A stretch of DNA of 64,000 nt from Octopus sinensis (GCF_006345805.1 NW_021826031.1:62001-126000), one strand, 5' to 3'; numbered from the stretch's first letter, positions 2,934 to 34,791 are shown. A program made the numbers and translations. Notes: a model not told the origin generated them from the sequence alone.

Positions 2934-3329
2934 TTATAATCGAATACAACAACCAAACAAACAAACAAATGTATTTAATAATTTAACTAATAAAAAATAA
3001 TTAATTAATCAATGATTACCTCTGAATGGCCAGGTTTCTCAATGAGATTGCATCTGGTCTTCCAATTTGTTGATTAAGTTTAAAGAGGAACATTTTTGAA
3101 CACTAAAAGTCTCAAAGTAAAGACACCGACATTAGTTTGCCTACCTAAGTTGCATTATTTGAATAGTTTGATATTATTATTAGAACCAATTATTAAAACT
3201 TATATGCTGTTTTTTGAGTCCTCAACGAGTGAACCCACATATTTTGTCTTCTCAGGATTCCTCGAAGTATATTCATATATTGTCTTCCTAAATTTTATGA
3301 ACCATTCAGTTAAAAAACTTTTTTAATGT

Positions 3330-3870
3330 TTCATAATTCTTTAAATGATTTTGCAATAGTCTCATAAATTTCACGTTTCACATGCATACGTTGATCCAAA
3401 TACTGATGTATTTTCCGAGTTTGGATATTCCATTGTAAAATTCGACTCCAAAAATCAAGTAGCTCACTTGAAGTAAATATCGCGATAAGTTGTAAATCTG
3501 ACTGCATTTCAACTACCTCCAGTTAACTTCTTCATGAAAATGTGTTCCGAATGCGATAATAACGAAGCATATTTACCATATGATTCATTTTCCCTGTGGT
3601 TAGAGAGTATTGGAAAATGAATACAGCTGACAATTTTTATTTCCCAAAGATGTGTAGACTTGGCGCTATAAAATATAAACGATTGAAGAAATAGAGAGAA
3701 AGTGTTTCGTGTATTTTTTAGATATTCTCGGAGTATACAGTTCAAGATTTCTTTGTGAAATAGCATCCTATTCAATGATTGCCACTGGGTTACTGGTAGC
3801 ACTAATAAAATAGTTGCCTCAATAAAATTAGAATATCAACTCCCTGAAATACGCCAACGTCTAAGTTAAT
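3330..3870 (-). mobile_element. Degenerate hAT (Buster/SPIN-like) transposase C-terminal remnant
   Basis: Fragments LEVVEMQSDLQL..ELLDFWS..EYPN..FGSTYACE resemble the hAT dimerisation domain; interrupted by stops and frameshifts. Confidence 0.6.
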
Positions 3871-3957
3871 TGACTGTAATAGCTGTAAAGTATCCTACCG
3901 ACAAAAAAGTTAAATTGCTACTATTTTCTATGCCTGTTACAATTAGAAAAGTATTAA

Positions 3958-4557
3958 TTATGCAAAATGTGAGTTATTTTTCTTAAAATATTCGATAAAC
4001 CAACTGACATGCTCCTTCTTCTCCTGCAACGTCAAGTGAGGATTGTGGGAAAGAGCAAGACAGAGAAGAGATATAAAATTGTCGACTTCCTTCTTATCAG
4101 TCGAATCCTTAAATTGTCTTTTGAGGAAGATGTGGTCCTTAAAGTCGACTGTCTTCTCTCCACGATCATAATCCTCGTTGTCAATTGGGAAGACTGGCAA
4201 TTTTCCCTCGTGAATTTGACACATTAAGTTGTCCCAGTTGTTGAAGGGGACCTTTATGTGAGTTCTATTCACGTATTCGTGGTATAATTTGTCCCAATAC
4301 TCCACGAGGTTGTCGTCTTTGTGGGGTTATTGACTATTCTTACTGTTCTCAAAAGCAGCATTTTTGTACTTGTGGAGAGCACTCAATTCGTAGTTGGTTG
4401 TTTGGTTTTTTACATTTTGCGCAAATATGTCTTTGTCTGAATTCCGTTTTCTTAAATTTGTGTCTTTTTTATGTTTTATTAGTTTTGATGCCGATCGGAT
4501 TTGAGAATGAATAGTAATAGCCAGGGATGAGGCACGAGGAAAATTAAATCCTAACAT
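3958..4557 (-). CDS. MRPS31: Mitochondrial ribosomal protein mS31
   Basis: EGKLPVFPIDNE...FKDHIFL...LSHNPHLTLQEKKEHVSWFIEYF matches the MRPS31 C-terminal domain; one 27-nt intron. Confidence 0.85.
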
Positions 4558-4627
4558 CGAATTTATATATTTAAAAATAGTAATAAAATATTATAACTTT
4601 TTAAATAAAAGATAACTTAATTTCAAT

Positions 4628-4783
4628 ATGTCATGGATGCCCCCGGCCATGGAGGACCATTCTGTATTAAATACTCAGCGGTCTACAAAGGACGATTGCC
4701 TTAATGAGGACTTCAAAAACTCTGAGAAACATCTTAAAGACAAAGAGGATCTTGACTTCGTCTTGAGACGACGATATCTTTAG
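4628..4783 (+). CDS. Putative 42-51 aa microprotein
   Basis: MSWMPPAMEDHS(VLNTQRSTK)DDCLNEDFKNSEKHLKDKEDLDFVLRRRYL*. GC-richer island with an in-frame 27-nt GT-AG intron candidate; head-to-head with MRPS31. Confidence 0.35.
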   Translation: MSWMPPAMEDHSVLNTQRSTKDDCLNEDFKNSEKHLKDKEDLDFVLRRRYL

Positions 4784-4917
4784 GGGACAAATATTTTTGA
4801 TTACTTTGTTAAAAAACTTAAAAAAATTTTTTATTCTTCTATTTTCCAACTTTTTGAAATCCCCAAATAAACTAGCAAATTTATTACAAATTCAAGTGCT
4901 GGTTGTACAAGTTTTCA

Positions 4918-5812
4918 ATGTCTTCGGATTTATACAAACAGCACTTAAAATTTCTTGAAAAGGCAAAATCCTTTTCTAACGATGTTCCCCCTCCCCAGGT
5001 GAATAAAGAAGCCCGAAATAGTTTATTTAATTAACTAATTGGACAAGAACGCTTTTCATTTGCAACAGCAAAGCCAAAAATAAGCCAAAAACAGCGTTTT
5101 TCAACATTAGCCCGAATTGTCATGTATTTAAAAGTAATAATCAAATTAAAAAAATGAAGGAACGATACAAAGAGGGGCACCGAGATGACTTTACTCTCGA
5201 TGAGATCCTCGAAAGGCTCGAATGTGATTTGGAAGAACGAGACCGCGACTGGCTACTCCACGAGGCCCTTCCTGCCAACGCCAAAGTCGAGATCGGAGAA
5301 TACAACCAAATCAGCTACGTTCCGTCTTACAACATAAACAAGGCCACGGACTTGTTCAAACAAATCAAACAGCACGCAGAAATGGGATTGGAAGGGATAT
5401 TGCTCTCAGAACTGAGGGAGTCAATGAAGGACCCCGATCGCGTGATTGAGGTAGATTTGGTGTGTATATGCAGAATATGACTGAAGTGATCATTCAGATC
5501 CCCCGTCCTGACAAAGATGTCTCCTTATTTTACCGAGGAAGCAAAAAGTTTCGAGTTACGGTGTCTGAGGGTATTGTGGGGGGTCGGAATGTTAGAGATA
5601 ATGCAGTTGTGGAATACTGTGAGCGTCGAGGGATGCGACGAAATGGCCATTGAGTCACATTTGCAGAAAGAGGGGATTCACTGTCGGCAGGATACGATCG
5701 CAATGAAATCTGTTGATTATCAGTTGTCAACTCGCAGGCAATCCCGGCCAAAAAGGATGCTAAGCAGAGCAAAAGACGGAGTACCAAACAGACGAATACT
5801 CATGTCGATTAA
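4918..5812 (+). CDS. GTF2E2: Transcription initiation factor IIE subunit beta (complete copy)
   Basis: MSSDLYKQHLKFLEKAK...RFSTLARIVMYLKERY...WLLHEALPANAKV...GILLSELRES...LWNTVSVE...TKQTNTHVD*; 23-27 nt introns. Confidence 0.85.
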
Positions 5813-6078: not shown

Positions 6079-6762
6079 TTAAAATTTGTTTTTCATTAAA
6101 TAGTTTCTGTAGGCTTTTTGCTCAGTAAGATATCCTCTTGGATCACAGTAGTGGGGATATTGTTTGTAGAAATTACAATATCCTCCGTCTATAATTGCCA
6201 AATTGGGATATAATAAAGATTTTCCTTCCCGAATCCCTTTTGTGTTAAATTTTTGAATGATTGAAATAATTTGTTTGCATCTTTTCGATGAAAATTCACA
6301 ATAAAAAATAAAAATAGAATTGCTTCCAGCTAATGTGAATTTCTTTCTTGCTGCACGTTCTGACATTAAACTTGCACCAACAACGTGCCCCATTTCATAC
6401 TCCTCTTCTGAGCGACAATCGAAGATGCTGTAGTTAAGAAATACATCTCCAAAATCATTTCTGATAATTTTAGACACGTATTTAGGGGTAATGAGAGGCA
6501 CTGACAAATAAGGCTCAATTTCAAATTCGATTTTGTAAAGATTCATTTTTCTTATTAAAAGAGATTGAAATTCGGGAAAGTAATCGTAAAAATTTTGTTC
6601 AAGATTAGAAGTTGGTTCTTGATTTATAATTTGTTCAGGAACATTGGCATCTATGAGAGACAAGTTTACATTATTTTCTTTTATTTTTATTTCAGTTGTC
6701 AATTCAAGATTTTCTTTTTCAATAATTTGAGAACTATCATTTTTATCAAAATAGGAATTCAT
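6079..6762 (-). CDS. CDC25: Cdc25/MIH1-type rhodanese-fold phosphatase, copy 1 (intronless)
   Basis: IFDCRSEEEYEMGHVVGA, catalytic loop FYCEFSSKR (CX5R), YPNLAIIDGGY, CDPRGY. Confidence 0.85.
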   Translation of the reverse strand: MNSYFDKNDSSQIIEKENLELTTEIKIKENNVNLSLIDANVPEQIINQEPTSNLEQNFYDYFPEFQSLLIRKMNLYKIEFEIEPYLSVPLITPKYVSKIIRNDFGDVFLNYSIFDCRSEEEYEMGHVVGASLMSERAARKKFTLAGSNSIFIFYCEFSSKRCKQIISIIQKFNTKGIREGKSLLYPNLAIIDGGYCNFYKQYPHYCDPRGYLTEQKAYRNYLMKNKF

Positions 6763-6788
6763 TACCGTAAAAAATTAAAAAAATAAAG

Positions 6789-7707: not shown

Positions 7708-8391
7708 TTAAAATTTGTTTTTCATTAAATAGTTTCTGTAGGCTTCTTGCTCAGTAAGATATCCTCTTGGATCACAGTAGTGGGGATATTGTTTGTAGAA
7801 ATTACAATATCCTCCGTCTATAATTGCCAAATTGGGATATAATAAAGATTTTCCTTCCCGAATCCCTTTTGTGTTAAATTTTTGAATGATTGAAATAATT
7901 TGTTTGCATCTTTTCGATGAAAATTCACAATAAAAAATAAAAATAGAATTGCTTCCAGCTAATGTGAATTTCTTTCTTGCTGCACGTTCTGACATTAAAC
8001 TTGCACCAACAACGTGCCCCATTTCATACTCCTCTTCTGAGCGACAATCGAAGATGCTGTAGTTAAGAAATACATCTCCAAAATCATTTCTGATAATTTT
8101 AGACACGTATTTAGGGGTAATGAGAGGCACTGACAAATAAGGCTCAATTTCAAATTCGATTTTGTAAAGATTCATTTTTCTTATTAAAAGAGATTGAAAT
8201 TCGGGAAAGTAATCGTAAAAATTTTGTTCAAGATTAGAAGTTGGTTCTTGATTTATAATTTGTTCAGGAACATTGGCATCTATGAGAGACAAGTTTACAT
8301 TATTTTCTTTTATTTTTATTTCAGTTGTCAATTCAAGATTTTCTTTTTCAATAATTTGAGAACTATCATTTTTATCAAAATAGGAATTCAT
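7708..8391 (-). CDS. CDC25: Cdc25-type phosphatase, copy 2 (retains native upstream region)
   Basis: Identical to copy 1 except a K/E difference near the C-terminus. Confidence 0.85.
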   Translation of the reverse strand: MNSYFDKNDSSQIIEKENLELTTEIKIKENNVNLSLIDANVPEQIINQEPTSNLEQNFYDYFPEFQSLLIRKMNLYKIEFEIEPYLSVPLITPKYVSKIIRNDFGDVFLNYSIFDCRSEEEYEMGHVVGASLMSERAARKKFTLAGSNSIFIFYCEFSSKRCKQIISIIQKFNTKGIREGKSLLYPNLAIIDGGYCNFYKQYPHYCDPRGYLTEQEAYRNYLMKNKF

Positions 8392-8592
8392 TACCGTAAA
8401 AAATTAAAAAAATATATTTAACATTGAGTTTTAATAAAAATTCTTAATTTAGAAATTTTTTCCTTTCGTAATTTCCAGGCATACTTCCGAGCTGGTCTTT
8501 CTGTCATCTTGTTTTTCAGCTGACTCAATATTATTTGCCATTTTATTCTTCATATTTTCGAGCATTTAGATTCTATAAGTATAAAATGAAAA

Positions 8593-11854: not shown

Positions 11855-12969
11855 CAGAAAAGCGATTGTTTAAAAATTAAATTTATTCGGATTTTACAAA
11901 AAGGGCTTTAATTGGATATTATTTTCCCGGGAAAATAATTAAAGGGATATCGAGAATGGAAAAAATTTCGAGATTGACTGTAAAATTTTGCACAAAAAAA
12001 TTTCAAAGAACGGCATCACAATACGAAAAATTGGACCGAGTCGTCCCTCTGAAATGACCATCAATGTACACTCGTGAAATAAACCATCAATGTATGTTAT
12101 GTCTTTCTGAAATTGCCAAAACCAAATGTATTGTTGACGGATCTCCTAAAACAATTGGTTGGATACTGAATGCATTTGGGTCACAAAATTAATTTCTTTT
12201 GACGTCAAAAATATTAAATCCAGATGGTTAATTTCGAAAAAAAATTTTAACGTCTTCTATGAGAAATGAAAGAATGTCATTTTTTGGACAAATCATGTTT
12301 TGAAGTATATAATAGTAAAATACAAAAAATTGTTTACTGTAAAAAGTAAGATATTGTCCTTAATGTTAAGTGGAGTAGATGAATGTTAATGCTTTGGAAT
12401 TTTTCTCATATAAAGGCAGCGGAAAATAGTCTCCTTTAATTCGAACCCACGACGGCCGCAATCCAACATCGAGCAAACTTTTCAATCATAGATGCTGGAA
12501 TAGAAGAGAATGAAGAAAGCTGATGAGGAAACTTGACCTAGTTTTGCAAATGACATCGCAAAGTCCTAATAATATACTTAAATCAGATAACAAGTTATCT
12601 TGACCGCATATTTAAAATTTTTTATTATATCGTATCCAGAAGACTCCAAAAGTAAAACAAAAAGTGCTTGTTTCATTAGTCTGCAATTTGTATCATTTTT
12701 TCAAAGTGAATATTTTCACCTTAAAATTTTTAAAGATGTTTAAGGGAAATTGTTTAAAATAAACTTTAGAAAACTTGATTTTACACACCTACATAAAAAA
12801 TTGATGATTAAAATGTCTCAAAAATTTCGATGCAATGTTCATCGCCTTAAAAAGATGCAAAACGATAGAATAAATTTTATTAAATTAATTAAATCCATAA
12901 TCATAAAGAGACAATAAGACATTAAAAGCTATAAATTAAATTATAAAAATAATACGTCTTTGAATGTGT

Positions 12970-15900
12970 CTAACTAGAAAATGAAGCTTCCACTGTCGAA
13001 CTTGATGATCCGTCTGTTATCGTAGTAGACAAATTATCAGTAGATGTCGAACATCGAGAAGACCGCGATTCCACGATGCTAGCTCCCTCTTTTAATTTAA
13101 AATCATTTTCAATAGATTGGTCAATTATTGTGGATTGAATTGTAGTATCTGAGTACGAGCACTCAGGATCTTCCTTAGCGAATAAATCGGAAACATATGA
13201 TTCTTAGTAACTAAACCAATTCTAATGAATTTACGATAAGTCGATATGTTTTTTCGATTAATTTCTAATAATTCGTATCTGAATTCGACCAAATTTTCCA
13301 TTTCATTATCATTTTTTTGACAAAATTTTTTGTCGTAAGTAACTGAACTCTGAAAAATATCCTAGAGATAACAGAATCTAATGAATCGACCTGAGGTTTA
13401 ACATTTGAAGATATAGAGGATGTATCCTAAAATTGAAATTTCTTTACAAACCTGTGAAGTATCCAAAACCAATTTAATATCCGGTCCTGTGGAAATAATT
13501 AGCCTAAAAACAACCACAACTTATATTTTCAGACGAAATCGAAATAACTTCATATTCTGGCGAATAAACAGTGGAATATAGAGATTCATCATTTATCTTT
13601 GATTTCTAAAAAAATTAAAAAAACTTCAAACATCGACTGAATCAATAATTATTTTGATATCAGGTTCTATTAAAAAATTCAATACTAAAATATACCGCAA
13701 GGAATCATCTCAGAAGATGTAACAAAAACTTGGGAATCATATGGCATTCGATGTTTCTAAAACAACTCATAAAAGCGTTTAAACTTCTAAAGAATCAAAA
13801 ATCACATTGACATCACGTTCTATTGAAATATCAAATAGTGATGTTTACCGTTTCTTATTATCTCACTAGGTTTAAAAGTTTGTTTGCATGTCGATGAATC
13901 TTGAATCGTCCGAGAGTCCTAATCAAATCAGAAAAAATATTTAAACATCGAAAGAATCAAAAATCACTTTGACATCACGTTCTATGGAAATATCAAATAG
14001 TGATGTTTACCGTTTCTTCTTATCTCACTAGGTTTAAATATTTTTTTGCATGTGGATGAATCTTCAATCGTCCGAGAGTCCTAATCAAATCAGAAAAATA
14101 TTTAAACATCGAAAGAATCAAAAATCACTTTGACATCACGTTCTATTGAAATATTAAATAGTGATGTTTACCGTTTCTTCTTATCTCACTAGGTTTAAAT
14201 GTTTGCTTGCGTGTTGATAAATCTTCAATCGTCCGAGAGTCCTAAATAAATTATAACACACGTTTTTATACATAGAAAGAATCAAAAATCACTTTGACAT
14301 CAGGTTCTATTAAAATATCAAAAATTGATCCTTACCGTTCCTTTTTATCTCACTAGGTTTAAAAGTTTGTTTGCGTGTTGATAAATCTTCAATCGTCCGA
14401 GAGTCCTAAATAAATTATAACACACGTTTTTATACATCGAAAGAATCAAAAATCACTTTGACATCAGGTTCTATTGAAATATCAAATATTAATCCTCACC
14501 GTTCCTTTTTATCTCGCTAGGTTTAAAAGTTTGTTTGCGTGTTGATAAATCTTCGATAGTCCGAGAGTCCTAAATAAATTATTAAACACATTTTTTACAT
14601 CGAAAGAATCAAAAATCACTTTGACATCAGGTTCTATTGAAATATCAAATATTAATCCTCACCGTTCCTTTTTATCTCACTAGGTTTAAAAGTTTGTTTG
14701 CGTGTTGATAAATCTTCGATAGTCCGAGAGTCCTAAATAAATTATTAAACACATTTTTTACATCGAAAGAATCAAAAATCACTTTGACATCAGGTTCTAT
14801 TGAAATATCAAATATTAATCCTCACCGTTCCTTTTTATCTCACTAGGTTTAAAAGTTTGTTTGCATGTTGATAAATCTTCGATAGTCCGAGAGTCCTAAA
14901 TAAATTATAAAGCACATTTTTTACATCGAAAGAATCAAAAATCACTTTGACATCAGGTTCTATTGAAATATCAAATATTAATCCTCACCGTTCCTTTTTA
15001 TCACACTAGGTTTAAAAGTTTGTTTGCGTGTTGATAAATCTTCGATAGTCCGAGAGTCCTAAATAAATTATAAAACACATTTTTTACATCGAAAGAATCA
15101 AAAATCACTTTGACATCAGGTTCTATTGAAATATCAAATATTAATCCTCACCGTTCCTTTTTATCTCACTAGGTTTAAAAGTTTGTTTGCGTGTTGATAA
15201 ATCTTCGATAGTCCGAGAGTCCTAAATAAATTATAAAGCACATTTTTTACATCGAAAGAATCAAAAATCACTTTGACATCAGGTTCTATTGAAATATCAA
15301 ATATTAATCCTCACCGTTCCTTTTTATCACACTAGGTTTAAAAGTTTGTTTGCGTGTTGATAAATCTTCGATAGTCCGAGAGTCCTAAATAAATTATAAC
15401 ACACGTTTTTATACATCGAAAGAATCAAAAATCACTTTGACATCAGGTTCTATTGAAATATCAAATATTAATCCTCACCGTTCCTTTTTATCTCATTAGG
15501 TTTAAAAGTTTGTTTGCATGTTGATAAATCTTCGATAGTCCGAGAGTCCTAAATAAATTATAAAACACATTTTTTACATGGAAAGAATCAAAAATCACTT
15601 TGACATCAGGTTCTATTGAAATATCAAATATTAGTCCTCACCGTTCCTTTTTATCTCACTAGGTTTAAAAGTTTGTTTGCATGTTGATAAATCTTCGATA
15701 GTCCGAGAGTCCTAAATAAATTATAAAACACATTTTTTACATCGAAAGAATCAAAAATCACTTTGACATCAGGTTCTATTGAAATATCAAATATTAATCC
15801 TCACCGTTCCTTTTTATCTCATTAGGTTTAAAAGTTTGTTTGCGTGTTGATAAATCTTCGATAGTCCGAGAGTCCTAAATAAATTATAAAGCACTTTTTA

Positions 15901-18900
15901 CATCGAAAGAATCAAAAATCATTTGACATCAGGTTCTATGAAATATCAAAATTAATCCTCACCGTTCCTTTTTATCACACTAGGTTTAAAAGTTTGTTTG
16001 CGTGTTGATAATCTTCGATAGTCCGAGAGTCCTGAATAAATTATAACACACGTTTTTATACATCGAAAGAATCAAAAATCACTTTGACATCAGGTTCTAT
16101 TGAAATATCAAATATTAATCCTCACCGTTCCTTTTTATCTCACTAGGTTTAAAAGTTTGTTTGCATGTTGATAAATCTTCGATAGTCCGAGAGTCCTAAA
16201 TAAATTATAAAGCACATTTTTTACATCGAAAGAATCAAAAATCACTTTGAGATAGGTTCTATTGAAATATCAAATATTAATCCTCACCGTTCCTTTTTAT
16301 CACACTAGGTTTAAAAGTTTGTTTGCGTGTTGATAAATCTTCGATAGTCCGAGAGTCCTAAATAAATTATAACACACGTTTTTATACATCGAAAGAATCA
16401 AAAATCACTTTGACATCAGGTTCTATTGAAATATAATATAATCCTCACCGTTCCTTTTTATCTCATTAGGTTTAAAAGTTTGTTTGCATGTTGATAAATC
16501 TTCGATAGTCCGAGAGTCCTAAATAAATTATAAAACACATTTTTTACATGGAAAGAATCAAAAATCACTTTGACATCAGGTTCTATTGAAATATCAAATA
16601 TTAGTCCTCACCGTTCCTTTTTATCTCACTAGGTTTAAAAGTTTGTTTGCATGTTGATAAATCTTCGATAGTCCGAGAGTCCTAAATAAATTATAAAACA
16701 CATTTTTTACATCGAAAGAATCAAAAATCACTTTGACATCAGGTTCTATTGAAATATCAAATATTAATCCTCACCGTTCCTTTTTATCTCATTAGGTTTA
16801 AAAGTTTGTTTGCGTGTTGATAAATCTTCGATAGTCCGAGAGTCCTAAATAAATTATAAAACACATTTTTTACATCGAGAGAATCCAAAATCACTTTCAC
16901 ATCAGGTTCTATTGAAATATTAAATAATAATACTTACCGTTTGTTCTTCTCTCACTAAGTTTAAAATTTTTTTTGCATGTCGATGAATCCCCAATCGACC
17001 GAGAGTCCTAATCAAATTAAAAAAACTTTTTTTACATCGAGAGAATCAAAAATCACTTTGATATCTGTTTCTATAAATACGCCTAAAATAATACTCACCA
17101 TAGCATTTTGCCTCAGAAGGTGTGTTGATTACTTTAAAAGTGCCTGGTTCATCAGTTGTATTCCATTTCTATAATATAAATGATTTTTTTAACCTCAACT
17201 GACTTTCCTGATTTAATAGAGTCCTATGAAAATTATTTCAATACACTAAAACATGTTTTTCCCTTCCTTGTAAAAACTGTTTAGATTGCTCTAATATTTT
17301 ATCTGTAATTGAGATATCCTTTACGTTCATAAATCACCAAAAACCGTATTTCTCTTAACGACAGGTTCTAGTCCTAGCATTTTCTTCAGTCTATGAATTT
17401 CTTGTTTCTAAAACTTTTAAGATCTTATTAAACCAACCAGTTCTTCACATTTTGTAACATAGAAACTGATTTTTTTTCAAACCTATTTTCACTTTCAAGT
17501 CTATCACTAAACAATTTTTCATAATCAATTTTGAGTTGAGAATAGTCTTTTAACTAATTTTTAATATATCAAATCAAACAATAAAATCCAATTCGTTACA
17601 TTTCATGATTTGTTTGTTTGATAAGTCTTTGTATTCTTTATTCATATCACTCAATTGAATTTTAAGATCTTCGACCTCCTTTTGTAAAATTGACAAACGT
17701 TCCTATAAATTTTAGAAATTTAAAAACATCATCGTTGTCTAATATTATTTTCACATCCTCATTAAGCAGTAAACTTTGAAGATTTGATTTTGGTATGTTC
17801 ATTTTGATTTCTTTACGAATATTAACAAGTTGCGTCTCCAGATCATCTCTTGAATAAACTAATTTTGCATTTTCTTGGTCTAGAATATCGCTTTCGATGC
17901 GCAAACTCTGAAATATTCAGAATTAAATATCAAACGGTCATTTCCTCGCTCTTTCGAGCCAATTCAGATGTTACATTAAACAATTTTTCTTTGATTTTAC
18001 TGGTTTCATTTAATAAAGACTGTAACTTAGTGTTACTATCTTCTGATTTGTTTTTAAACGTCTAAATCTTAGATTTATCGGTTCACATCAATTAAGTTAT
18101 CTTTTTCTTGAATTTCGGACAAATATTGTTTCAGCTTTGTATTAAGATCTTCTTCAGAGTATTTGAGATTAGGGTTCTTTCGAATATTGAATCAAAAAAC
18201 CTGAGTATTAGGATCGCTCTCATGTTCCGAAATTTTACAGATAAGGTTGGATACTTCTATTTTCAGATTCTACAATGACATGTACAATATTTGTTTACCC
18301 TAACTTCTTTGTTTTTATCATTAAGTTCATTATCTTGCTCTTCCAGCGTTTTTTCCAACAAAGAGTTTGCGTCTTTCATCATAGAAATATCCATGCATAT
18401 TCTATCAAAATTTTTACGTAAATCCTTTAAATTAATCATAATTGTAAACTTTTATTTTTTTATTCTTATTTTTCAATTTCATTTCATAGTTTTCAATCAT
18501 TTTCACTGACGACAAATTGAACTCTTTGAGAGTTTCAATTTGATTCTTTATATTTTCAAGCTCACATCGCAGTATCTATTCACATTAAAATTGAAAAACT
18601 AGAACTTGGGTTTCATTTTTGTATCCATCTAAAAGCTTTATTTGCGAGTATTCCTTTTCTTTCAATTTTTTGCATTCTTGATTACAGTTGTTTAACATTT
18701 CTTGTATTTTCTATCATTTGAAAAAGTTTATTAACGTCGATTTCTGAGGATCTCTCTTCTAACTTTATCTCTGTTTCATTTAATCTCGCTATCAGTTGAT
18801 CGTTTAATTCTTTGAGGCCATCTTTTTCAAAGTTTATCGTTTTATCTTTAGAATCTTCAGTTTTATTCTGCTTAGATTAGTTTCTTGCAAATATGCTTAC

Positions 18901-21900
18901 TTCATCAATCATTTCTGTTGTATCAAATATAATTTTGACATCCTTTACAAAACTTGTGTTCAGTTTATTCATTTCTACTCGAACATTCGCGAGATCGTCT
19001 TCTAGTCGATTGTTAAAATATACAAGCTGTTCTTTTTCCCTCAGCAATGAATCTTCTTTCGTCAAAATAGTCTAAAATGCAGTAAAGAATATATCCAACA
19101 ATAATATTTTGGTCCTTTTCGGACAATTCGTCATTAAGTTTTATCAAATCTTCTTTTAGCTGAGAATTTGAAATTACGAGTGACTGAATGTTGTTATTAG
19201 AATCTTCTAATTCATTTTTCGACAACTAAATTTAACTATGGTTATATAAATACTATTATCAACTCATCTTTTTTCGTAATGGAATTAGAAAGTTCAGAAA
19301 TTTCCATTTTTAAATTCTAAAATAAAATTTGGTTATTAGAAACCTCATTTTCCATTTCTTTCAATTGGAAATTTTGCATTATTTTCTTTAATTCGTCATT
19401 AATTTCAAGATAATTTTGTTTATAGTCTTTCAAAGCATCAACCATGGCAGTTAATTCCTATTTTTGATAGAGGTTTATTAGTAAACTAGGATCTGTTGAT
19501 TTTTATCACTTAGGTCATTTTCTCGTTCTCCTAAAGTTTTATCCAGAACTGATTTGGACTCTTTAACAGCTGTGATGTCCAAACAAATACTGTCAAAACT
19601 GCTGCGTAAATCCTAAAATTGATATAATTTTTTGACTATTAATTTTTTATTTGAGTTTTCCAATTCCATTTCATATTTTTCTATTATGTCAACAGACGGT
19701 CTTTCTTGAAAATTACATAGCTCCGTTCTCAATTCTTCCAACTCATTTCTTAATGTCTATCATGAATAAATAATAAATTAAAAACCTGGTTTACTTTTCT
19801 CTCTTCTGACAACTCCTCATTCGTTTCTAAATTTTGAGAGATTCCATTTTTGATTTCCTGATTTAATTCTTCGTTTTGAATTTTGTAATTCTGTAATATA
19901 TTCATTAAATTCTAAAAATTTAAGAGACATTGACAAAAAACATCATTTTCTTCACTTTTGTTTTTCAGTCCTATCTCAATATTTCGTAATTGTAATTGGA
20001 GCTGTTCGTTCACTTCTGAAAGTTTTTCTATCTCAGCTTCGTACATTTTCGTTTCATCCTCGAATTTCTAAAACTGTTGACAAACTTAACTTTAATTTTA
20101 TGATTTTCATTTTTGAGTGACGTATTTAACTCGTCGATCTCTTTTTGCAGTTTTATCTGCTCTTCCATCAAAACGTTGATCTGAGACGTGTATTCATTTT
20201 CTTTTTTTTCTAAGATTTGGTTCAAAGACTTCAATTCTTTCAATTCTTTGAGTAGCTCTGCAAATTCATTTTTTAGTTCCTGTAAAATAAGAAGTGAAAC
20301 TAACTTTTGTTTCTTCTCTTTCAAGATACAACTTATTCTCTAATAAGGAAAAGTCCTCGAGGATGAATTCTTCATCTTTCTGTGCGTGCATTTTAAATAA
20401 ATTAAAATCATTTTCCAAGGCCTGATTAAAAAAATTATATGTAAACTTTGATTATTTCTTCTTTTTCCCCTATTTCTCTGGACATTTTTTCCTGCAAATT
20501 TGTCTGGTATATTTTTTCAGCTTCAATCGTTTTCAAATTCTCAATTAGTTCCTTACACACTCAAACTCATTATATACCTCATTCAGCTTTTCCTTGATAT
20601 CTAAATCAATTCCGTATTTCGATAACTTATTTTCCGACTCTGTATGCAACCCTCTCAGTTCAAACAACTCATCCCGAGTTGACGCAAGTTCTCTTTCAAT
20701 TTCCTGAATTTTTTATCATTTGTTTATACTCTATTAGTTTCTTCCAAAACGTTTATTTCAGACTTGAGAGTTTCAATGTCTTTAAGCAAAATTGTTTTCA
20801 TGTTATTCGTGTTCTCGATGTACAAAACGCGTTCATTTTCCAAATTCTATTAAAATTATTTTCATTAATAACCATAATTTCTTCATTTTTAACATTCAAT
20901 TCACTTTCAATCTTCTTTAGTGTCTTTTTTAATTCCTTTTTCATTTTTTTATTATTTTCTAAGTCAGATTGAATATTCATCATTTCCTATATATAAAATT
21001 GAGTTTTGTTAACATCAATTCGATCGTCTTTGTCTTTTAGAAGATTATCGGAATTTCTCATTTTCTCTTGCAAATCGTTATAATTAACATTTAGATTTTC
21101 ATAGTCATTCACGATAGTTCTATAACAATTCTCTAATTCCTAGATAATAAACTAAAATAATGATTCCAACGCTATATTCTTTTTCTTTTTTATCCGCACT
21201 ATCTTTGATGTCCTGTAACTTTTCATTTAAATAATTTTCAGATTCTTTATAATTTTGAGTGATCAGTTTTATTCGATTTTCCAGATTCTAAAATATAGAT
21301 TATTAATCAACAGTAACTTGAATTAGATCGTCCTTCGTTTCCAAATTCTGATTCAATTTGGAAATTATCTGTTCTAATTCGTATTGAATCTCTTCAAAAT
21401 TTTTCATTGAGGGAGCATTTGACATTTCCTAATATAATTTTATCAAGGTGATGACAATAATTTTGACGTCTTTTTCTTTTATTTGTTGTTTGTAATAAGA
21501 TGGAGACATTCTGAGAGAATCACAGATCTCTTCAGATTCCTGAAGTTTTTGACTCAAAATTTGTAAATTTCCTTCAAGTTCCTGTTTTAATAGTTCATAA
21601 GGTTAATTTTTAACTTTCATGTGCTCATCTTTTGACGCCAATTCGTCATTGACAACCGCGAGTTTATGAGCATCTTCCACAACTGTCCTTTGAGAAAGGG
21701 ATAATTCATTTTTTAGCCTCTATATAGTCAAGTTTAATCTTCAGACCTCGATATCTTTATCTTTTTCTTGTAATTCATATGAATTATTTTGCTTTAGTTT
21801 TTCTATAGATTCGCGTAGGTCCAAAAGTTTTTTATTATCCTTACAAATTAAATAAATATTGATTACATTATCCTCATCACTGATGATAGAGGAGACTTTA

Positions 21901-24818
21901 GACTGACTGGTGTCTTCTTCACTTGAACTGTCAGTATACAAAAGATGTATTTTTATATCTTTCTCGTTCTTTGAAATCATGATTATAAGATTTACATTAA
22001 TAATGTAATCATTTTCTTGAGGAGTATATTTCAAATTTTTAGATTCTTCTAACAACTTTTCTAGTTCTTGGACTTTGTTATTAAGAATCTGGTTAGACGA
22101 GTCGTTTTCCGCAATTTTGCTTTTTAGCTTTTCAATTTCAGAATGAAAACTCCTCGAAATATCGTTCTTTTCACTTTCTTTTGTTTCTAATTCATTCAAA
22201 AGAGTGCTTATTCGATTGTTCAAAGAGTTCATTTCCTCTTTTAACCGATCATTTTGAACATCGAAACACCCTATTTTGTAACTTTGAGCATAGACTGCCT
22301 TTATCTGCCAGATTATAGTTGTCATTCTGATAATATTCCCCTTCATCCTCTTCTATCGTCGTCATTCGTAACTAAATATTATGTCGGCGCCACGCAAACG
22401 GTTGAATATTCCAAACTTGTTTCATTCGGATCAAGTTGAGTGGCCATAGTCTATTAAATTAAAATTAAATCATTCAATCACCGTTTGTTCGGTGATTTGC
22501 TGATCGGGAGTAAGATCTAGAATGATTTGATCGAGTTTGGAGATTTTCTGTTTATAGTAGCACTCCTTTTGGCATTTTATGCACCAAAGAATATACATTC
22601 TCTCTGTATTCATTGTTTTCAATTAATAGCTCGTTTCTCTTGGCAGTGGATTCGCTTAGTTCTCTGGTAACCCAATCTTTGTCTTCCTTAATTGTAGTGA
22701 ATAAATTTGGGACTTTGATTTCGTCGAAATCGACTTTTATTGCTTCCAGCTGGTCCTCGAGTTCTTCGATTTGCGACTGTAGTTCTTTGTTTTTAATTTC
22801 CGTGTTGGTAAGCAGACTGCATGATTCATTTAATTCTTCCTTCAATCGGAAAATCTCTGTTTCAAATGTCTCATTCTATGAAAATCAATAATTGTTCACT
22901 ATTACTCCATTTTGCCTACACTTCTCCAAATCTACCAGTTGCTCGACAAGTTTTTTATTGTCTTCCTGAATTATGAAATAAATAAATTACTTTTAAATTA
23001 GTGGCTTCGTCTACTGAATCGTTAAATATAGATTTTATTTGTTCAAGTTGCTCTTGGTTACAATTATACAAGTTTTCGAGTTCTTTTATTTTTAACTGAA
23101 GCACATTATTTTCTTTTTCCGCTTCATTAAACAGCAAATTTGTCGCGTTCATGTGCTCTCTTAGTTCACTAAGCTCTGATTCAAACATTTTTGTCTATTT
23201 CAAAAATAAAATTAAGCTAAACCGTCTCCAAAGCACTTTGTTTATCATTCTCAAGTATTCCTTCAAGTGTGATTTTTTCTTTTTCAGAATTATTTAAAAG
23301 TAACTCAGTTTCTCTGATTTTTTCCTTTGCTTCCCTGAGTTCTCGAATGGTGTTTTCTGAGACGGTCTCCAACTTTAAATTCTCATTTTCAAGAAATAAT
23401 ATGTCCATCTTTAAATTGTATTGAATAGTACTACATTTGATTGGACAGATGTTAATTCGTTTTCTAGATTATTATTGAGTAGTGCCAGATTGTCTGCTCT
23501 TGACCGTAACTCAATATTCTCCTGTAAAATGTCGTTTGATTGAGTTTGACAATTTTCTAGGACAGCCTTTTCATCCTACAAATTGTCCTCACGGAATACA
23601 CAACCTCCAGTATGTCAATTCTTTCTTTAAGATAATCGACTTCCTGCTGATATTCTATAATTATCGATTATACAGATTCAAACTTTTAATTTGTTCTTTA
23701 TTTCTGGCTACTTCTGACTATTAAAATATAATATTGCCACATCATGCCTTAAAAGAGTTGACTTCTTCCAAATCTAAGGAAGACTCTCTGGAACTCCTTG
23801 ATAAAGAATCCTTAAGGTTTAAATCAACATTTCGTACATTGAACAATATTTTTATATCTTGTACATCATTTGGCCCTGACTTCATTCCAGTGTCGAATTG
23901 TTGACCTAATAAATGGATGAACTAGAAATTCTCACATTCCTCGTCGCTAAGAACAGATTTTGCTGACAATTTTCTATCTTGCATATGTTTTTGCGTTCTC
24001 AGTTGAAAAATAATGTTTATAAGCTCCTCTCTTGAAAGGTCGTCTAATTGGTGTGGATCATTTGAAGTTGACTCGTGTGCAGTTTCATAGAGGGACAAAA
24101 ATAAATTATAAATAACGATTTTTGAGTTTTGTAAATCCTGTATTGAACTATAATATGTCTAGAAAATTAATAGAAAATTAACAAACCTCGACGGTGTCTT
24201 TCATTATTTTATACTCTCGAATGTGTTGGTTATTACATGTTTCCAATTCCCGTAATTTTTGTTTGATTTTAATATTCTGTGTGTTGAAATGTTTAATTTA
24301 CCTCGATTTTGGTCTCCTGGAGTGTTGTACTTTGATCACTCAATTTAGATTTCAGGACAATCTCTTCTTTTCGGAGTAAATCGTTTTGTGTGCGTAAAAA
24401 AGTAATTTCCTCGTTCTTAATCTTATCAGAAGATTTTTCTGACTGAGACTAGACCAAATAAAAATGACAAAAAACCATTTGCAGGTCTCCAAGTGAGTTA
24501 ATAAAGTTTGTTTGCGCCAACACTATGGCTTTAGCATCTTCTAACTCTCGCCGGGTATTCTGTAGGGTATCGTCAATGTGGTCATTTGCCACACATTTGA
24601 GTTCTAATTCGTCAATCATTAATCTAAGTCGAATTGTCGTTTAATTTTTACTGGAGTTGTGATTTTTCCTGTCGAAGTCTTCGCATTTCTTGTTCCCATT
24701 CTTTATTAGCTGTTTTATAAAGGACACAAGCTTTAGTATAGTCTGAAATGAGATCTTCAAACTGTCCTTTAATGCTCTCAATAAATCCTTCTTTAAAGTA
24801 TTCTGCGCATTCAGTCAT
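12970..24818 (-). CDS. Giant (roughly 3000 aa) many-exon coiled-coil protein with C-terminal 35-aa repeats; orphan, possibly ciliary/rootlet
   Basis: Starts MTECAEYFKEGFIESIKGQFEDL. The E/K/L/N-rich heptad exons I spliced join in frame through 24-37 nt introns (not every junction checked). Ends in a Ser/Thr-rich tail ...VEASFSS* (TAG). Confidence 0.7.
13775..17100 (-). repeat. 163-bp intragenic tandem array, about 21 copies (two exons + two 29-nt introns per unit)
   Basis: Unit splices to DSRTIEDLSTRKQTFKPSEIKRN|EPDVKVIFDSFD| (105 nt coding + 29 + 29 = 163). Period verified, e.g. 14598 to 14761. Confidence 0.9.
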
Positions 24819-24933
24819 TTTTCAGAATTTATTAAAATTTTTCAGATTCTATAACAAGATAAGAACCAAAAAATATAATTTGTGGTTTTAAGTTTCCCTG
24901 AGGGGCAAATCAATTGCTTTAGACTTTTGCAAA

Positions 24934-25021
24934 CTGGCATAGTAACATGGGAATTGGGCTGTTTTATAGAAAGTTGATTTATGTTTCGAGTATAATAAAT
25001 AACCTTCCCTGCCATGGCAAC
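24934..25021 (-). promoter_or_regulatory. Two RFX X-box-like motifs upstream of the giant coiled-coil gene
   Basis: GTTGCCATGGCAG (25009-25021) and GTTACTATGCCAG (24934-24946). Confidence 0.55.
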
Positions 25022-25969
25022 CCTTGCTGCAAATAAGACAGCACGTTGCATGAATATATTTATAAAGTTGATAAATTGAGATAAACAATGCCAATTGGAT
25101 CATAATATAGATGCATTACCTTAAGATGGGTACGTTGAACACTGCCAATTAACGTCGGACTATTTTTTAGTATAGTTACAATTGGATTGACCAGCAAAAA
25201 ATGAAAAAAATATATTATAAATAAAAATAATAATAAATATAATTATAAACAGAAATTTTAACTAATAAAGACTATAAAAGTATACATTTGTTCAATAGAT
25301 TAACTTCCCAGGATTTTCATTTGAATCTAGACAGCTAATGATTGTCTTAATTGTAGTAAATAAGCTGCAAGACATTCTTTAGTTAAGCAAAGAGATGGAA
25401 ACCTGTTCAAGGCAATCAGTAATAAAGGAAAATTAAAATTTACTGATTATGTTTGTATGACAAGTTAACTTATTCATGATCAAGAAAAAGAGCTTAGATC
25501 AAAAAACTGACATTTCTTATTGAAAATGATTATTATTCCGACAATTGGAATACCCAATTAATTAAAGTTAATTCAATTGTTTATAGATTTTTTAGTAAAA
25601 GTGTATTTTAATTATCAATTTTAATCTATTGATAAATGTATTTATCGACACCACTAACTGCGGCTTATGTGACCAAGACTAACCACGCGTATTCCTCATC
25701 TTCATAAAGATTCTTATTTTTCATTTTGATTTATATGCAATGATAAAAATAAACTACCTCAATGTCTAATTTCCATGGAAGTCCGGACAAATGATGCTAT
25801 GGTTCCTAGCAAACTAAAGAGACATTTTACTTGCAAGCATCCTGACTATTGCTGGATTATTTAATCCTTTTGAAAAAACAATAAAAGTATTATTTAGTTT
25901 TTACTATGTATCGTAGATCTAGTCAAATGATGTTCAGGGAAAATTTCAATATCAATAATATTTCCTATT

Positions 25970-26295
25970 ATTTGCCATGAAATGGAGGCAAACTTTAAAA
26001 ATTTGTTACTTCATACCAAAATTCAAGGGCTATCGAGGGGTAAAGCATTAACGAGGGTTTTAAAATTAAAGGACGAAGTGAGTGAGTTATTTAAATTGGA
26101 AAGGAATTCTGATTTTGTTGAAAAATATATAGCTTGCGTATTTACCTGATATTTTACAAATATTAAACGAGGTTAATGCAAGGATGTTCTGAGACTATTT
26201 TATCGTCGACGGAAAAATTAAATTCTTTAAAAATTAAAATCAGTTTTTGGAGAAAAAGGGTTTTAGGTGGCGCTTATACTATGTTTCCTACAAAA
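25970..26295 (+). mobile_element. hAT Buster/ZBED8-like transposase remnant
   Basis: NLLLHTKIQGLSRGKALTRVLKLKDEV..LAYLPDILQILNEVN..MQG..KISFW (compare LLHTEVRWLSRGKVL). Confidence 0.75.
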
Positions 26296-26520
26296 ATATT
26301 CTTCCCTCGAGGACCGCTACCGCGTTACGCCAATCGCCCTGGAGCCGCGGGAAAGGAGACCGACTCGTTCCTCAATGAGGTCAGGCAGTCCATTGGGAGG
26401 AGGCTCAAGGACCCGTGAGAGGGCCTCTGGTTCCGCCAGCGCATCGGTCTGGCCATTGTCCGCGGCAACCCACACTGCGTCCTTGCCGCTGGCACATAAC
26501 GCTTTTCTTCTATTTCTGTA
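26296..26520 (+). mobile_element. CRE-like retrotransposon 3' fragment
   Basis: KYSSLEDRYRVTPIALE..GAAGKETDSFL..GRRLKDP..WFRQRIGLAIVRGN; GC-rich. Confidence 0.7.
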
Positions 26521-27544: not shown

Positions 27545-27931
27545 CTATCGCCTGACAATTGATTTTAATTTCTTTCGATTCATTTTCTTCAACTTGCGAG
27601 GATCACTTATCTAAGAAATAACCACCCTGATACTCACAGGCTGAACAATCTCAGATTTCAAACTGTTTTTTGCCCTCCGTTCTTTATTTTCAGCTATTTT
27701 TTGTCTTTGAGCCACCAAACGAGCTTTGCGATCATCGAGTAGTGTTTTCTCAAAATTCTTGACTTTGTTTAGATTCGCCTTCAACTTGATTTTCTTTTCC
27801 AAGTTCATGCGAGTTCCTTTAGACATACTCAATGCAGAATGACTATAATAATGATATAATATTGACCGACGGAGCCTTGGCGTTTTCCATCTTCTTCCAG
27901 ATTTGGGGATTCCGCGTGGAATTGTATTCAT
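27545..27931 (-). CDS. CCDC86: CCDC86/Cgr1 nucleolar protein
   Basis: MNTIPRGIPKSGRRWK...ENKERRAKNSLKSEIVQP|ISDPRKLKKM; two micro-introns. Confidence 0.85.
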
Positions 27932-28822
27932 CCAACTAATTTTCTCACAACACAACACACGTTTGTATTATTTTATTTAAAAAGTAATAAAAAATAAATT
28001 TTTTACTAATATTTTTTTAATAATTAAATGAAATTTAAATTCTTGAGAGTTAACTTTAACTTTCGACTTAAAATAAATAAATATGATTTTTAGTCCACGG
28101 CATTAACAATTTAAGAGCTCCCAATAATTTCAGGAAAAATCTACATTACGAGGATATTGCAGGTACTTTTCTGGGTCATCTTAACGACAAATAACTAGAC
28201 TGATGGCCAATAAACTTATCACCAATTAAAATAGTAGTGTTGTCTTAATTCTGTATACTAATTTTCGAAACTACTGCATATTGGTTTTTTACAAACCTTG
28301 AACTGGTTTATTATCAAATTCGGGGAAATCACTTGATCGTTATTCCCAACCAATTCGTTAATAGTCGGCTTATTTCTGACTGTAAATTCATTTCTTGTAT
28401 GGTCAGTATTTCGCAAATAGAAAACAGCTTAAAGTGGAAAAATGTGAAAATTTAATTTTATTGTTAGAAAACGAACAAATCGTCAAATAAATCCTTTTTA
28501 TTAAAATTTCAAAAGTCAAAATTAGTTTTTATGTATTTTTATATCTAGCTATTTAATGACGAACCCCTCAGTCGAATGCTTTCAAAAATAGCAAAAACTT
28601 TTCACTTTTAGTAAACTGGCTAAATTAATTCACAAGGAGTTTAGAGACCCATTTGTCGTAAAATATTATTTGGTCGTATTACTGCTTCATTTGAATTGAT
28701 AATTAATTATTTCCAAATTAAATCCGACTGTCATCCATTCTAAGAATTGTCTAAACTCCCCAAACTGTGCCTAGCCAACCTCTTTATCGTTCGAACAAGT
28801 AAAAAGTATATTTAAAAGAATA

Positions 28823-32428: not shown

Positions 32429-34791
32429 ATGGCCCCTTCAGACCAACAGAACGACACGTTTCTGAAATACAAAAGAAATCCCGACTACTGCAAATCAAAC
32501 ATCACTCAAAAACAAGACAAGCACGATTTTGCCAGCCTTCGAGGTTAGCATTCCCGACTATTCACAGAGCGACTGACTGAGGAATTAAACAAGCAAAGTT
32601 GCGAATGCTTAATATGCTGTGCCACAATCGTCCGGACTGCGCGGATATGGAATTGTGGCTCCTGTTATAACGTCTACCACCTCTCCTGCATTAAGGAATG
32701 GGCTTTGTCCAGCAAGAAAGACACCTGGCCTTGTCCCTCCTGCAAATTTGCTCACATTATCATTCCCAATACATACAGGTGTATTTATATAATATATTCA
32801 GATGTTTTTGTGGCAATGTGAAGGATCCAGTTTCGACAGACTGGACAGCACACAGTTGTGGCAATATTTGTGGGAGGGTTGGACTCTGCGGACACAAATG
32901 TGTGCTCAGATGTCACCCCGGGGCATGTCCTCCCTGTCCAATGTCCGTCCAAATTCACTGCTTTTGTGGCAACACCAGCAAATTCGATCGTTGTTGGAGG
33001 CACAATCACACCTTCTCCTGTCAAACTGGCAAATGTGGCAAGAGATTGAACTGCGGAGTGCACTACTGCCAGGAAATATGCCATCCTGGTGACTGTCGTG
33101 ACTGCACTGAGAAAATGACAGTCGGTTTGTCAATTTCTCTAATCCCAGACTGTTTTTGCGGCCAGGAAAGCAGACAATTGGAATGTGCATATGACCAGTC
33201 TGGGTATAGTTGTGAGGGAGTCTGTTCTCGGTATTTATCCTGTGGAGTGCACACCTGTTTGGAGAAGTGTCATCCCCCCACATGCCAAACATGTCCTCTC
33301 CACATTGAGAATCTGAGGACATGTGTCTGTGGACAAACCCCGATAAAAGAACTGTTCAATGCAAGGACAGGAGTGCTCGAATGTCTCCCGACCTGTCATA
33401 AAATATGTGGGAAGCCACTGAAATGTGATTCCAACCATTTCTGTCATTGGATGTGTCATTCTGGTGAGTGTCCTGACCACTGTGAGGAAGGAATGTCCAG
33501 AATTGTCTGTCGTTGTGGGAAAACAGTCCAAGACGTGTCCTGTCGTGAGGCAGTCGAGTCCTTCCAGTGTGGGACTGTCTGCAACACACGGAAAGACTGC
33601 AAAAGACACACCTGTCACGACAAATGCTGCAATTTAAGTACTATTTATATAAGAGTAGTAATCCACTATTGCAATGAAGTGTGTGGGCGACCACTGGCCT
33701 GTAATAATCACAAGTGCGAGGAAAAGTGCCACTCTGGCAAGTGCAAGAAGTGTCCTTATTTGAGTAAGTGGGGTCATTTATTAGACACGGACGAACTGTT
33801 TTGTCACTGTGGGGGTACAGTCATCCTCCCTCCTACTCCGTGTGGGACTCCTCCACCCACGTGCAGTCTCCCCTGCAGTCGTCCTCAGGAGTGTACTATT
33901 CACCCGGCCAATCACGACTGTCATCCCAGTGGGGACTGCCCTCCCTGCAACCGTCGAATATCAGCAACCTGCTATGGCGGACACAAGGTGGCCTACTGAG
34001 GGAATATCGTAGAAATTGGATACTGTTCTGTGCTATAGAAAATCGTTCAGTTGTGGAGATAAGTGTGGAAAACCATTGAAGTGTGGCATTCATTTTTGTC
34101 AGTCTACGTGCCACCAGGTTGGCCATGACTGAGTATAAAAGGGGGAGTGTAGTGGATGTACTCAACCATGCACAGTGAGGAGGGTCGACTGTGGGCATAT
34201 TTGTGGGATTGTCTGTTCTAAACACACCAAATGTTGTCCGGAGCCATGCCCAATGACAGTTCCACGTATTAGTAATGTGAAGATTAAACTGTATTGCAAA
34301 TGTGGAGTAAAGATGGAGAAGACTGTGTGTAGTAACAGAACTATTGACTGTGATGACAGTTGTGTCAGACAGAGGCGTCTCAATGCCTTTAAAGATGTGT
34401 TTGGGACGCCTGATTTGTCATTCGAATATTCCTTCACCCAATCGTGGACACAAACAGCCAGGCAATGTCCACAATTAAATTGCATAGACAGAATATTAAA
34501 TTCATTGAGAGTGTGGAACGAATATTATCCGACCTGATTGGCCGACTGAGTGAGGTTAGCCACTGTAGAAACACTCCTTAGGGAACTGAAATGAGTCTGG
34601 TTTATGACTTTCCCCCAATGAGTCACGAAAAGTGCACAATTATTGAGAAGATGGCCGAGTACTACCAATGTGAGGCACATTTGTACGACTATGAGCCACA
34701 TATGAATGCCACTGTCATTGTCTATAAAACAAGTGCATTGCCCAGTCGACTTGTATCCGATTTGCTTAGAAATAAGACTTTAAATTGTTGA
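32429..34791 (+). CDS. NFX1: NF-X1 (RING/PHD, NF-X1 zinc fingers, degenerate R3H)
   Basis: CLICCATI..IWNCGSCYNVYHLSCIKEW, repeated CGxHxCxxxCHxGxC fingers, C-terminal FPPM..YDYEP. Confidence 0.9.

Follow-up and report, generated by a model that had tools for sequence, protein, structure and literature searches.

What kind of protein is encoded on the minus strand of positions 12970-25021 in a 64,000-nt stretch filed under Octopus sinensis (GCF_006345805.1 NW_021826031.1:62001-126000, hereafter the window), and what is the short motif for that recurs along it? An earlier note on this DNA, made from the sequence alone, described an orphan giant coiled-coil protein under apparent RFX control and proposed a basal-body or rootlet scaffold with a repeated docking motif. 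In this work, we analyzed the structure of this gene, its repeats, its motif copies and its 5' end. The results point tentatively towards a multivalent docking scaffold that probably sits at the ciliary base (basal body or rootlet), a reading to which we give a probability of roughly 0.4.

The gene could be modelled as a stop-free path from an ATG at 24818 to a TAG at 12970, with 102 coding exons and 3,005 amino acids (aa). The model was obtained by dynamic programming permitting GT/GC..AG introns, which before the use of reads gave about 100 introns, 97 of them of 21-33 nt, followed by read data and hand correction. The 101 coding introns measure 23-33 nt (mean 28.1; 99 GT-AG and two GC-AG), a 271-nt intron in the 5' untranslated region (5'UTR) brings the total to 102, and the standard code fits the region as a minus-strand eukaryotic gene. 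Contigs of four sequencing runs were placed on 16900-25700: X1 and X2 derive from one sample, possibly the source of the window, and X3 and X5 from two other studies. The model carries X at four one-base indels, of which the one behind 17469 is likely an assembly error and the remaining three all fall in copies of a tandem array. The main features of the model are the following.

17099-24818, minus: exons encoding aa 1-2086, which comprise the head and the coiled-coil rod together with its linkers (model; spliced X2 and X3 contigs)
23747-23718, minus: GC-AG intron of 30 nt, deduced from the frame and the RNA gap totals
22298-22271, minus: GC-AG intron of 28 nt, deduced from the frame and the RNA gap totals
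17469-17470, strand not applicable: missing base in a homopolymer run of the window; an X1 DNA contig has one extra letter behind 17469, which shifts the frame of exon 17553-17438
12876-12881, minus: AATAAA, likely poly(A) signal, about 90 nt past the stop (sequence)

The run search returned no RNA run among those listed, and X2 is labelled 'DNA?', yet its contigs are spliced; spliced contigs are also present in X3 and X5. One X2 contig of 4,837 nt spans 17612-23521 with 39 introns removed, another of 1,030 nt covers 23616-24848 and then continues for 21 nt past a joint at 25120, and the ranges of these two contigs take in 47 of the 53 coding introns that precede the array. The model made before the reads already equalled three X2 gap totals (211, 373 and 57 nt). 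Afterwards one acceptor was shifted to agree with a listed joint, and X2 and X3 totals served to place three 27-nt introns and a GC donor; with these edits all 15 lengths compared with X2 and X3 agree, partly by construction. A stop-free path is by itself weak proof, as an early model crossed 17100-17470 open in the wrong frame, and among the contigs listed 23522-23615 and 17194-17611 have neither RNA cover nor a bridging contig. Half of the distinct exonic differences listed for X2 and X3 (11 of 22, one intronic row being dropped) are silent against 26% expected (p 0.014), and this excess supports coding constraint on the gene. On the array unit X2 has no depth, and its longer contig ends at 17612, 25 nt beyond an AATAAA within a coding exon; reading this point as a 3' end was considered and rejected, since no added A's follow it and a message ending there would lack a stop codon. 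Splicing is thus seen directly in the rod and at the array junctions, while the tail below 16900 lies outside the read placement and comes from the model only. From the regular 25-30-nt introns, the open frame and the continuing heptads, we infer a single chain running through rod, array and tail.

Heptads cover 69% of aa 1-2063, compared with 11% after shuffling, and 0% of the array and tail, by a simple score of our own; the signal in the rod has a sharp period of 3.5 residues. Introns in the rod keep to the heptad register: 49 of 54 are in phase 0, 17 of the 40 in-frame exons have lengths divisible by 21 nt (p 1e-5), and exon sizes between 17400 and 23600 cluster at 126, 105, 84 and 63 nt. 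Together with the model and the splicing in X2, X3 and X5, this rod bears out the giant spliced coiled-coil protein that had been proposed. A block of about 320 aa occurs twice, its exons matching each other by phmmer with E values from 1e-14 to 2e-4 at offsets of 315-324 aa.

18901-20067, minus: copy 1 of the duplication, aa 1289-1612, ending in DVKIIFD at 18922-18942 (exon-to-exon phmmer)
17728-18867, minus: copy 2 of the duplication, aa 1613-1930, ending in DVKIILD at 17737-17757 (exon-to-exon phmmer)

Beyond the rod lies the array, with a 163-nt period repeated 20.2 times at 94% matches and 35 aa per unit, followed by a tail.

13785-17070, minus: tandem array, 163-nt period, 21 motif exons of 35 nt of the EPDVKVIFDSFD type and 20 spacer exons of 70 nt, introns of about 29 nt (repeat analysis, model)
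13632-13666, minus: diverged 35-nt motif exon PDIKIIIDSVD in array phases (model only)
13452-13486, minus: diverged 35-nt motif exon PDIKLVLDTSQ in array phases (model only)
12970-13426, minus: Ser/Asp-rich tail with the stop codon (model only)

Three array exons are one base short (16258-16225, 16031-15963 and 15935-15902). In X3, a motif exon is spliced to a spacer exon and a spacer to the next motif exon, and in X5 exon 17168-17099 is spliced straight to a motif exon of the second-unit type with the frame kept (17099-16874), which we read as the first array unit being skipped or absent in the X5 strain. Since X3 and X5 show the motif exon spliced, the motif is in mRNA, and the idea of the array as one long intron or a satellite was discarded because the splicing occurs on both sides of that exon. 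DNA depth summed on one array unit is about 560 against 67, which indicates many copies and is not a copy number. Diversity among units amounts to 0.046 in the motif exons, 0.069 in the spacers and 0.090 and 0.026 in the two introns, and six diverged modules differ from the core by 17 amino-acid-changing and four silent codon differences. The model sequence of the tail has neither a membrane anchor (best 19-aa hydropathy 0.96) nor a CAAX. The gene has grown by duplicating whole exons, namely the 320-aa rod block and the 35+70-nt exon pair in the tail.

The motif, D[VI]K[IV]I[FL]D, occurs 28 times: five copies in the rod, 21 in the array (19 that fit the pattern and two damaged by indels) and two in the tail. 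Outside the array, D[VI]K[IVL][IVLH] matches seven times against 0.11 in shuffled sequence, and none of 2000 shuffles reaches seven. The DVKIIFD and DVKIILD copies of the rod are not independent, because each ends a copy of the 320-aa duplication; with the internal duplicate and the tail copies taken away, four matches remain against 0.08 shuffled (0 of 5000). The Asp is invariant and the Lys nearly so. All seven single motifs are in frame, with their Asp codons at 23858, 21959, 21470, 18942, 17757, 13661 and 13481, and the five rod copies sit in exons retained by X2. The copies not yet placed are these.

23838-23858, minus: DIKILFN, aa 275, ending an exon (model; 27-nt intron 23837-23811 deduced from X2 and X3 gap totals)
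21939-21959, minus: DIKIHLL, aa 776 (model)
21456-21470, minus: DVKII, aa 910, ending an exon (model; gap total of 57 in X2 and X3)

The exon after DIKILFN opens with DSLSR, and the array spacer opens with DSRTI. For six of the seven single motifs the exon end is at most 14 codons away. The earlier note was therefore right about the places of the seven single motifs, their frequent position at exon ends and a total of more than 25 copies. Intron read-through as a source of the motif was rejected: X2 gap totals keep the motif-bearing rod exons whole, and X3 and X5 splice the motif exon on both sides.

What this motif could bind was scored on the 26 intact copies. The PP1 docking that had been suggested for it is not supported, since the refined RVxF consensus, [KR][KR][VI]{not FIMYDP}[FW], excludes Ile at the x position (PMC12723162, partial text) and none of the 26 copies passes; a loose RVxF fits 19, and in a review the consensus is printed with no such exclusion (PMC6363451). 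The SUMO-interacting motif (SIM), also proposed in advance, fared better in part: its core, V/I-x-V/I-V/I with acidic flanks, fits 23 of 26 copies (PMC3395311, partial text), stricter forms being treated below. Two further patterns, absent from the earlier note, would also on paper explain the invariant Asp: (i) the inverted SUMO acceptor site [ED]xK-psi, with 25 of 26 (PMC13213312, partial text), a match that alone does not define a substrate, and (ii) the core of the FIP200-interacting region (FIR), [DE/pS/pT]-hydrophobic-x-x-[LIV], again with 25 of 26, including a copy in which Lys is changed to Asn (PMC7946963, partial text). In aa 1-2063, the SIM pattern matches five times (three of them motif copies), the inverted SUMO site 18 times and the FIR core 52 times. 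The canonical LC3-interacting region (LIR) fits two copies, PxIxI 17 and PxIxI[TS] none, with D or E at position -1 in both registers; in calcineurin docking an acid at -1 strongly lowers binding, and position 2 prefers R, K or S (PMC6728138, partial text). On these fits SUMO is the best candidate among the partners named, though a doubtful one; a FIP200/Atg8-type partner appears less probable, PP1 very improbable, and the rest of the probability goes to an unnamed partner or to self-association.

At the 5' end, the 1,030-nt X2 contig places a first exon piece without an ATG, and an in-frame TGA lies two codons before the start ATG.

25120-25140, minus: non-coding first exon piece, the 5'-most transcribed sequence seen; the true start may lie further (X2 contig, 21 nt past joint 24848>25120)
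24849-25119, minus: 5'UTR intron, 271 nt, GT..AG, the sole long intron (X2 joint 24848>25120)
25008-25021, minus: X-box-like site 1, GTTGCCATGGCAGG, with one RFX half perfect and 12 of 14 positions agreeing with the palindrome (pattern scans)
24933-24946, minus: X-box-like site 2, GTTACTATGCCAGT, one good half only (pattern scans)
24892-24906, minus: third site, fitting the loosest X-box consensus, in the same 271-nt intron (pattern scan)

Sites 1 and 2 lie 115-203 nt before the ATG, inside the intron and downstream of the transcribed base 25140. The half-site CAYRGYAAC occurs three times in the window (1.68 expected), two of the occurrences being in the 271-nt intron, and two of 20,000 shuffles of the intron held two of them, the pattern having been chosen after the sites were seen. 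The third, at 57906-57914, is by the apparent start of a minus-strand gene at 57293-57914, with a GYTRYY-N-RRHRAC match at 58049; this gene has repeated T-T-x-x-x-x-F-type stretches and is a candidate axonemal inner protein, presumably of the SAXO/PPP1R32 kind. Across the window X-box counts are at chance (2 against 2.47 expected), RYYNYY N1-3 RRNRAC matches 100 times, and another X-box pattern scan gave seven matches, neither site 1 nor site 2 among them. The fully specified RFX palindrome occurs once against 0.10 expected (9 of 100 shuffles). On our own X-box score site 1 reaches 9.5 and site 2 3.6, with 214 sites in the window at 8 or more. An X5 contig (181 nt, depth 4.8) matches 24966-25028, site 1 included, with four differences and then a diverged flank, and may come from a related strain or species or from another copy. 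A small nucleolar or structured RNA in the intron was considered and rejected (fold z -0.24, no Rfam match inside); the whole window has no Rfam match at the gathering score.

A ciliary reading needs a ciliated organism, so the identity of the source matters. To our knowledge, myxozoans are without cilia. Among animals, introns below 30 nt are reported only from myxobolid myxozoans and Dicyema (PMC13644364, partial text), and Dicyema sp. has a median intron of 27 bp (PMC6543705, partial text). At 46756-48222 (minus), a CNNM gene shares 99% identity with a protein named Octopus sinensis on a 669-kb contig and 40-52% with the other 119 matches listed; in a quick tree of 33 of the 120 matches, built with no dicyemid reference, it falls outside the mollusc clade on a branch of 3.5-3.7. 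Its database model seems to read through tiny introns. Given the introns below 30 nt and a long-branched neighbour filed as Octopus sinensis, the window is most likely a dicyemid contig filed under its octopus host. Dicyemids are ciliated inhabitants of octopus renal sacs; for D. japonicum a GC content of 36.7% and an average of 6.2 introns per gene are given (PMC6736024, partial text). The window shows mostly introns below 30 nt, the standard code, a cephalopod association and a long branch, as expected of Dicyemida. A second CNNM-matching protein named Octopus sinensis (46%, on another contig) also has a long branch, a hint that two parasite species, or else paralogues, have been entered under the host.

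If these elements are put together, the long rod and the flexible tail of 23 exon-encoded motif modules would make a docking scaffold. The rod, in parallel, would dimerise and bundle like rootletin-type proteins, and each D-[VI]-K-[VI]-I-[FL]-D, an acidic-flanked hydrophobic strand, might extend the sheet of a small partner domain at its edge, the richness of the motif in Val and Ile suggesting a strand. A single motif would bind weakly, avidity over at least 20 copies giving the strength. Motif copies sit at rod breaks beyond chance. The SIM core overlaps the inverted SUMO acceptor Lys, and chains could thereby be cross-linked through SUMO, while RFX half-sites in the sole long intron would drive expression in ciliated cells. 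It is tempting to go one step further and picture a dicyemid rootlet built from a rootletin-like rod that carries its own SUMO cross-linker, each D-V-K-V-I-F-D being both SUMO acceptor and binder, with one such module per ~320-aa rod repeat and 23 more in the tail. The bundling and period of the fibre would then be set by SUMO-SIM bridges, adjustable by adding or skipping 105-nt exon pairs. We hold this elaboration to be improbable, more so than any of the rival explanations below.

A number of observations weigh against the scaffold at the ciliary base. Neither site 1 nor site 2 is a full X-box (RYYNYY N1-3 RRNRAC or stricter): each holds one good half CAYRGYAAC and is one base off the loosest published consensus. 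The two X-box-like sites described upstream of the gene do exist, therefore, as half-sites inside the 5'UTR intron. An X-box that is not conserved is by itself no predictor of RFX control (PMC2375033, partial text), and the word 'RFX' has no occurrence in the available portions of the dicyemid genome papers PMC6736024 and PMC6543705. Atlas leads for the gene at 57293-57914 (CFAP68/143/95) are weak (recognition 1848, fewer than 170 shared features), and it has no Pfam match. The large protein could be assigned to no family among those tested, as 52 of the 61 non-array exons (or read-through) and one array spacer, run singly against Pfam, gave nothing at the curated cut-off, and single exons of 20-91 aa gave no match to the rootletin profile in Pfam. 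The stricter SIMa and SIMr patterns fit none of the 26 copies, and SUMO networks, being mostly nuclear, pull against a ciliary site. In the AlphaFold2 model of the 57-aa exon with DVKIIFD at its end, a single continuous helix runs through the motif as well (pLDDT 95, three sequences), which weighs against a strand, weakly since the fragment is isolated. Array copies are young and their introns about as uniform as the exons; thus the array shows no selection of its own. Set beside these points are a contig that is likely from a ciliated dicyemid and half-sites in the sole long intron of the gene, and the case for RFX control of the gene is suggestive only. In the fly, Rootletin is among the targets of RFX, and its first intron carries an enhancer for ciliated neurons (PMC2375033 and PMC4489026, both partial text), a parallel to the long-intron half-sites by analogy only.

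The SUMO fit and the acidic tail would also suit a diverged nuclear scaffold (a TPR/Mlp-like basket or a CENP-F/NuMA-like protein) whose tail gained an array of SIMs and SUMO sites, the half-sites being there by chance. A rod followed by a long acidic disordered tail is the layout of TPR, dicyemid proteins are so diverged that orthology could be missed, and two TPR profiles touch exon 22268-21996 below threshold. Their scores, however, are far from the cut-offs (TPR_MLP1_2, 18.5 against 36 bits; Nucleoprot-TPR, 17.2 against 27) in a single-exon test of low power, and the exon also gives PriC, golgin and ODAD1 matches; the chain has only one short basic patch, KKMKK, and two RFX half-sites in its sole long intron. 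We consider this unlikely, if still the foremost of the alternatives. Close behind it in probability, the exon pair in the tail may have expanded recently and near-neutrally, the motif acting as a linker or in self-association and recruiting nothing. The 94% identity of the copies, the homogenisation of introns like exons, the 17 amino-acid-changing against four silent differences of the six diverged modules, the variable number or use of units seen at the X5 joint (17168-17099 to a second-unit-type exon) and the AlphaFold2 helix over the motif all agree with it. They have to be set against an Asp that is invariant, and a Lys nearly so, in copies otherwise sharing little, a placement at rod breaks far beyond chance, and a 3.3-kb array kept by a genome that trims introns to 28 nt.

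The remaining rivals concern the partner and have lower standing. A golgin-like or autophagy tether, with the motif as an element for the FIP200 Claw or Atg8 (FIR or atypical LIR), would account for the FIR core in 25 of 26 copies, the Lys-to-Asn copy included (PMC7946963, partial text), for the likeness of the ATG16L1 FIR peptide D-I-E-V-I-V-D to the array's D-V-K-V-I-F-D (PMC12513996, partial text) and for weak Atlas leads to rabaptin, HOOK1 and GOLGA2 fragments; the FIR core is nevertheless so loose that it matches 52 times in the rod, the exons scanned have no membrane anchor, GRIP or GRAB match, the canonical LIR fits two of 26, and the core of the motif contains a basic residue, which leaves the tether rather improbable. 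Still more doubtful is a phosphatase scaffold, in which the motif would dock calcineurin (PxIxIT-like) or PP1 (RVxF). PxIxI in 17 and loose RVxF in 19 of the 26 copies speak for it, as does AKAP79, which uses the near-consensus PIAIIIT, Ile for Pro, plus weak sites (bioRxiv 2021.05.23.445342), but refined RVxF and PxIxI[TS] both fit none, and the D or E at -1 in both registers would lower calcineurin binding (PMC6728138, partial text).

Should the scaffold at the ciliary base be right, it would be a first molecular handle on the dicyemid ciliary base; a literature search on the dicyemid rootlet turned up no dicyemid work. It would also show cleanly how duplication of an exon pair can multiply a docking motif, here in a genome whose introns are otherwise cut down to about 28 nt. 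As a class, giant coiled coils restricted to one lineage and ending in repeats are familiar. Whatever the function, this gene carries 102 introns against the D. japonicum average of 6.2 (PMC6736024, partial text), and the window most likely represents a parasite contig annotated as octopus in public protein sets.

Elsewhere in the window, Pfam identifies an RRM protein, which we take to be SART3-like, TFIIE beta, a Cgr1/CCDC86-like protein, an NF-X1 zinc finger and a MYST acetyltransferase (within 416-5480, 27550-27940 and 32695-35829). Two near-identical 231-aa rhodanese-domain open reading frames (ORFs) on the minus strand (6079-6774 and 7708-8403), presumably Cdc25-like, are 1,629 nt apart and represent either a recent tandem duplication or an assembly duplicate. 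A GC-rich broken scrap at 26290-26500 (plus) reads like the C-terminal end of a non-LTR (long terminal repeat) retrotransposon, by our assumption of CRE type, and reverse-transcriptase-like scraps lie near 55330, 58124 and 61257.

How, then, does this protein compare with known systems? The Pfam, PDB, protein and metagenome searches of its fragments were blank, as expected of the orphan that had been claimed; these searches used single exons or read-through ORFs and are weak evidence of orphan status. The best sub-threshold Pfam matches are generic coiled coils, two being TPR/Mlp profiles (E 0.002 and 0.005), and GRIP, GRAB and PACT gave no match in the exons scanned. Exon 22597-22875 had no homologue among proteins of 164-2000 aa, nor did a 175-aa read-through ORF among 1.84 billion representatives, the only search to cover proteins above 2000 aa, or among metagenome contigs. 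A motif alignment search found no homologue (best PDB E 0.036), and neither did two N-terminal exons against PDB (best E 0.024, a designed TPR). Atlas leads for the protein are weak and mixed coiled coils.

Rootletin and C-Nap1 (CROCC, CEP250) resemble it in having about 2,000 aa of head and rod, the rootletins being of 2,009 and 2,048 aa and the non-array part here of 2,063-2,086 aa, and the coiled-coil tail of ~1,700-2,000 aa that characterizes rootletin is found here too, at a heptad cover of 69% against 11%. It differs in an extra ~920 aa of array and tail, in the want of a full X-box and in giving no rootletin-domain match on single exons, and its repeated motif is not described for rootletin in the available portions of PMC2375033 and PMC4489026. 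The likeness to TPR/Mlp1-2/Megator consists of the two sub-threshold Pfam matches, generic and far below cut-off, while the tandem 35-aa array and a rod lengthened by internal duplication set the protein apart. In TPR, as here, a long broken coiled coil is followed by an acidic disordered tail. Golgins and pericentrin/AKAP9 are similar in size and rod composition, but no C-terminal membrane anchor, GRIP, GRAB or PACT match appeared in the exons scanned. Multi-motif scaffolds, such as poly-SIM proteins, the FIRs of CCPG1 and ATG16L1, and AKAP79, share with it many weak short motifs in a disordered region and tandem repeats built from small exons; the KNL1 MELT array, ALMS1 and the ANKRD30/36 repeats are further scaffolds of this sort. 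From these it differs in having no sequence link to them, in its 23 modules each on its own 35-nt exon and in a motif that also punctuates the rod. Altogether, the protein would appear to work like the known giant motif-array scaffolds while being assignable to none of their families on the tests run.

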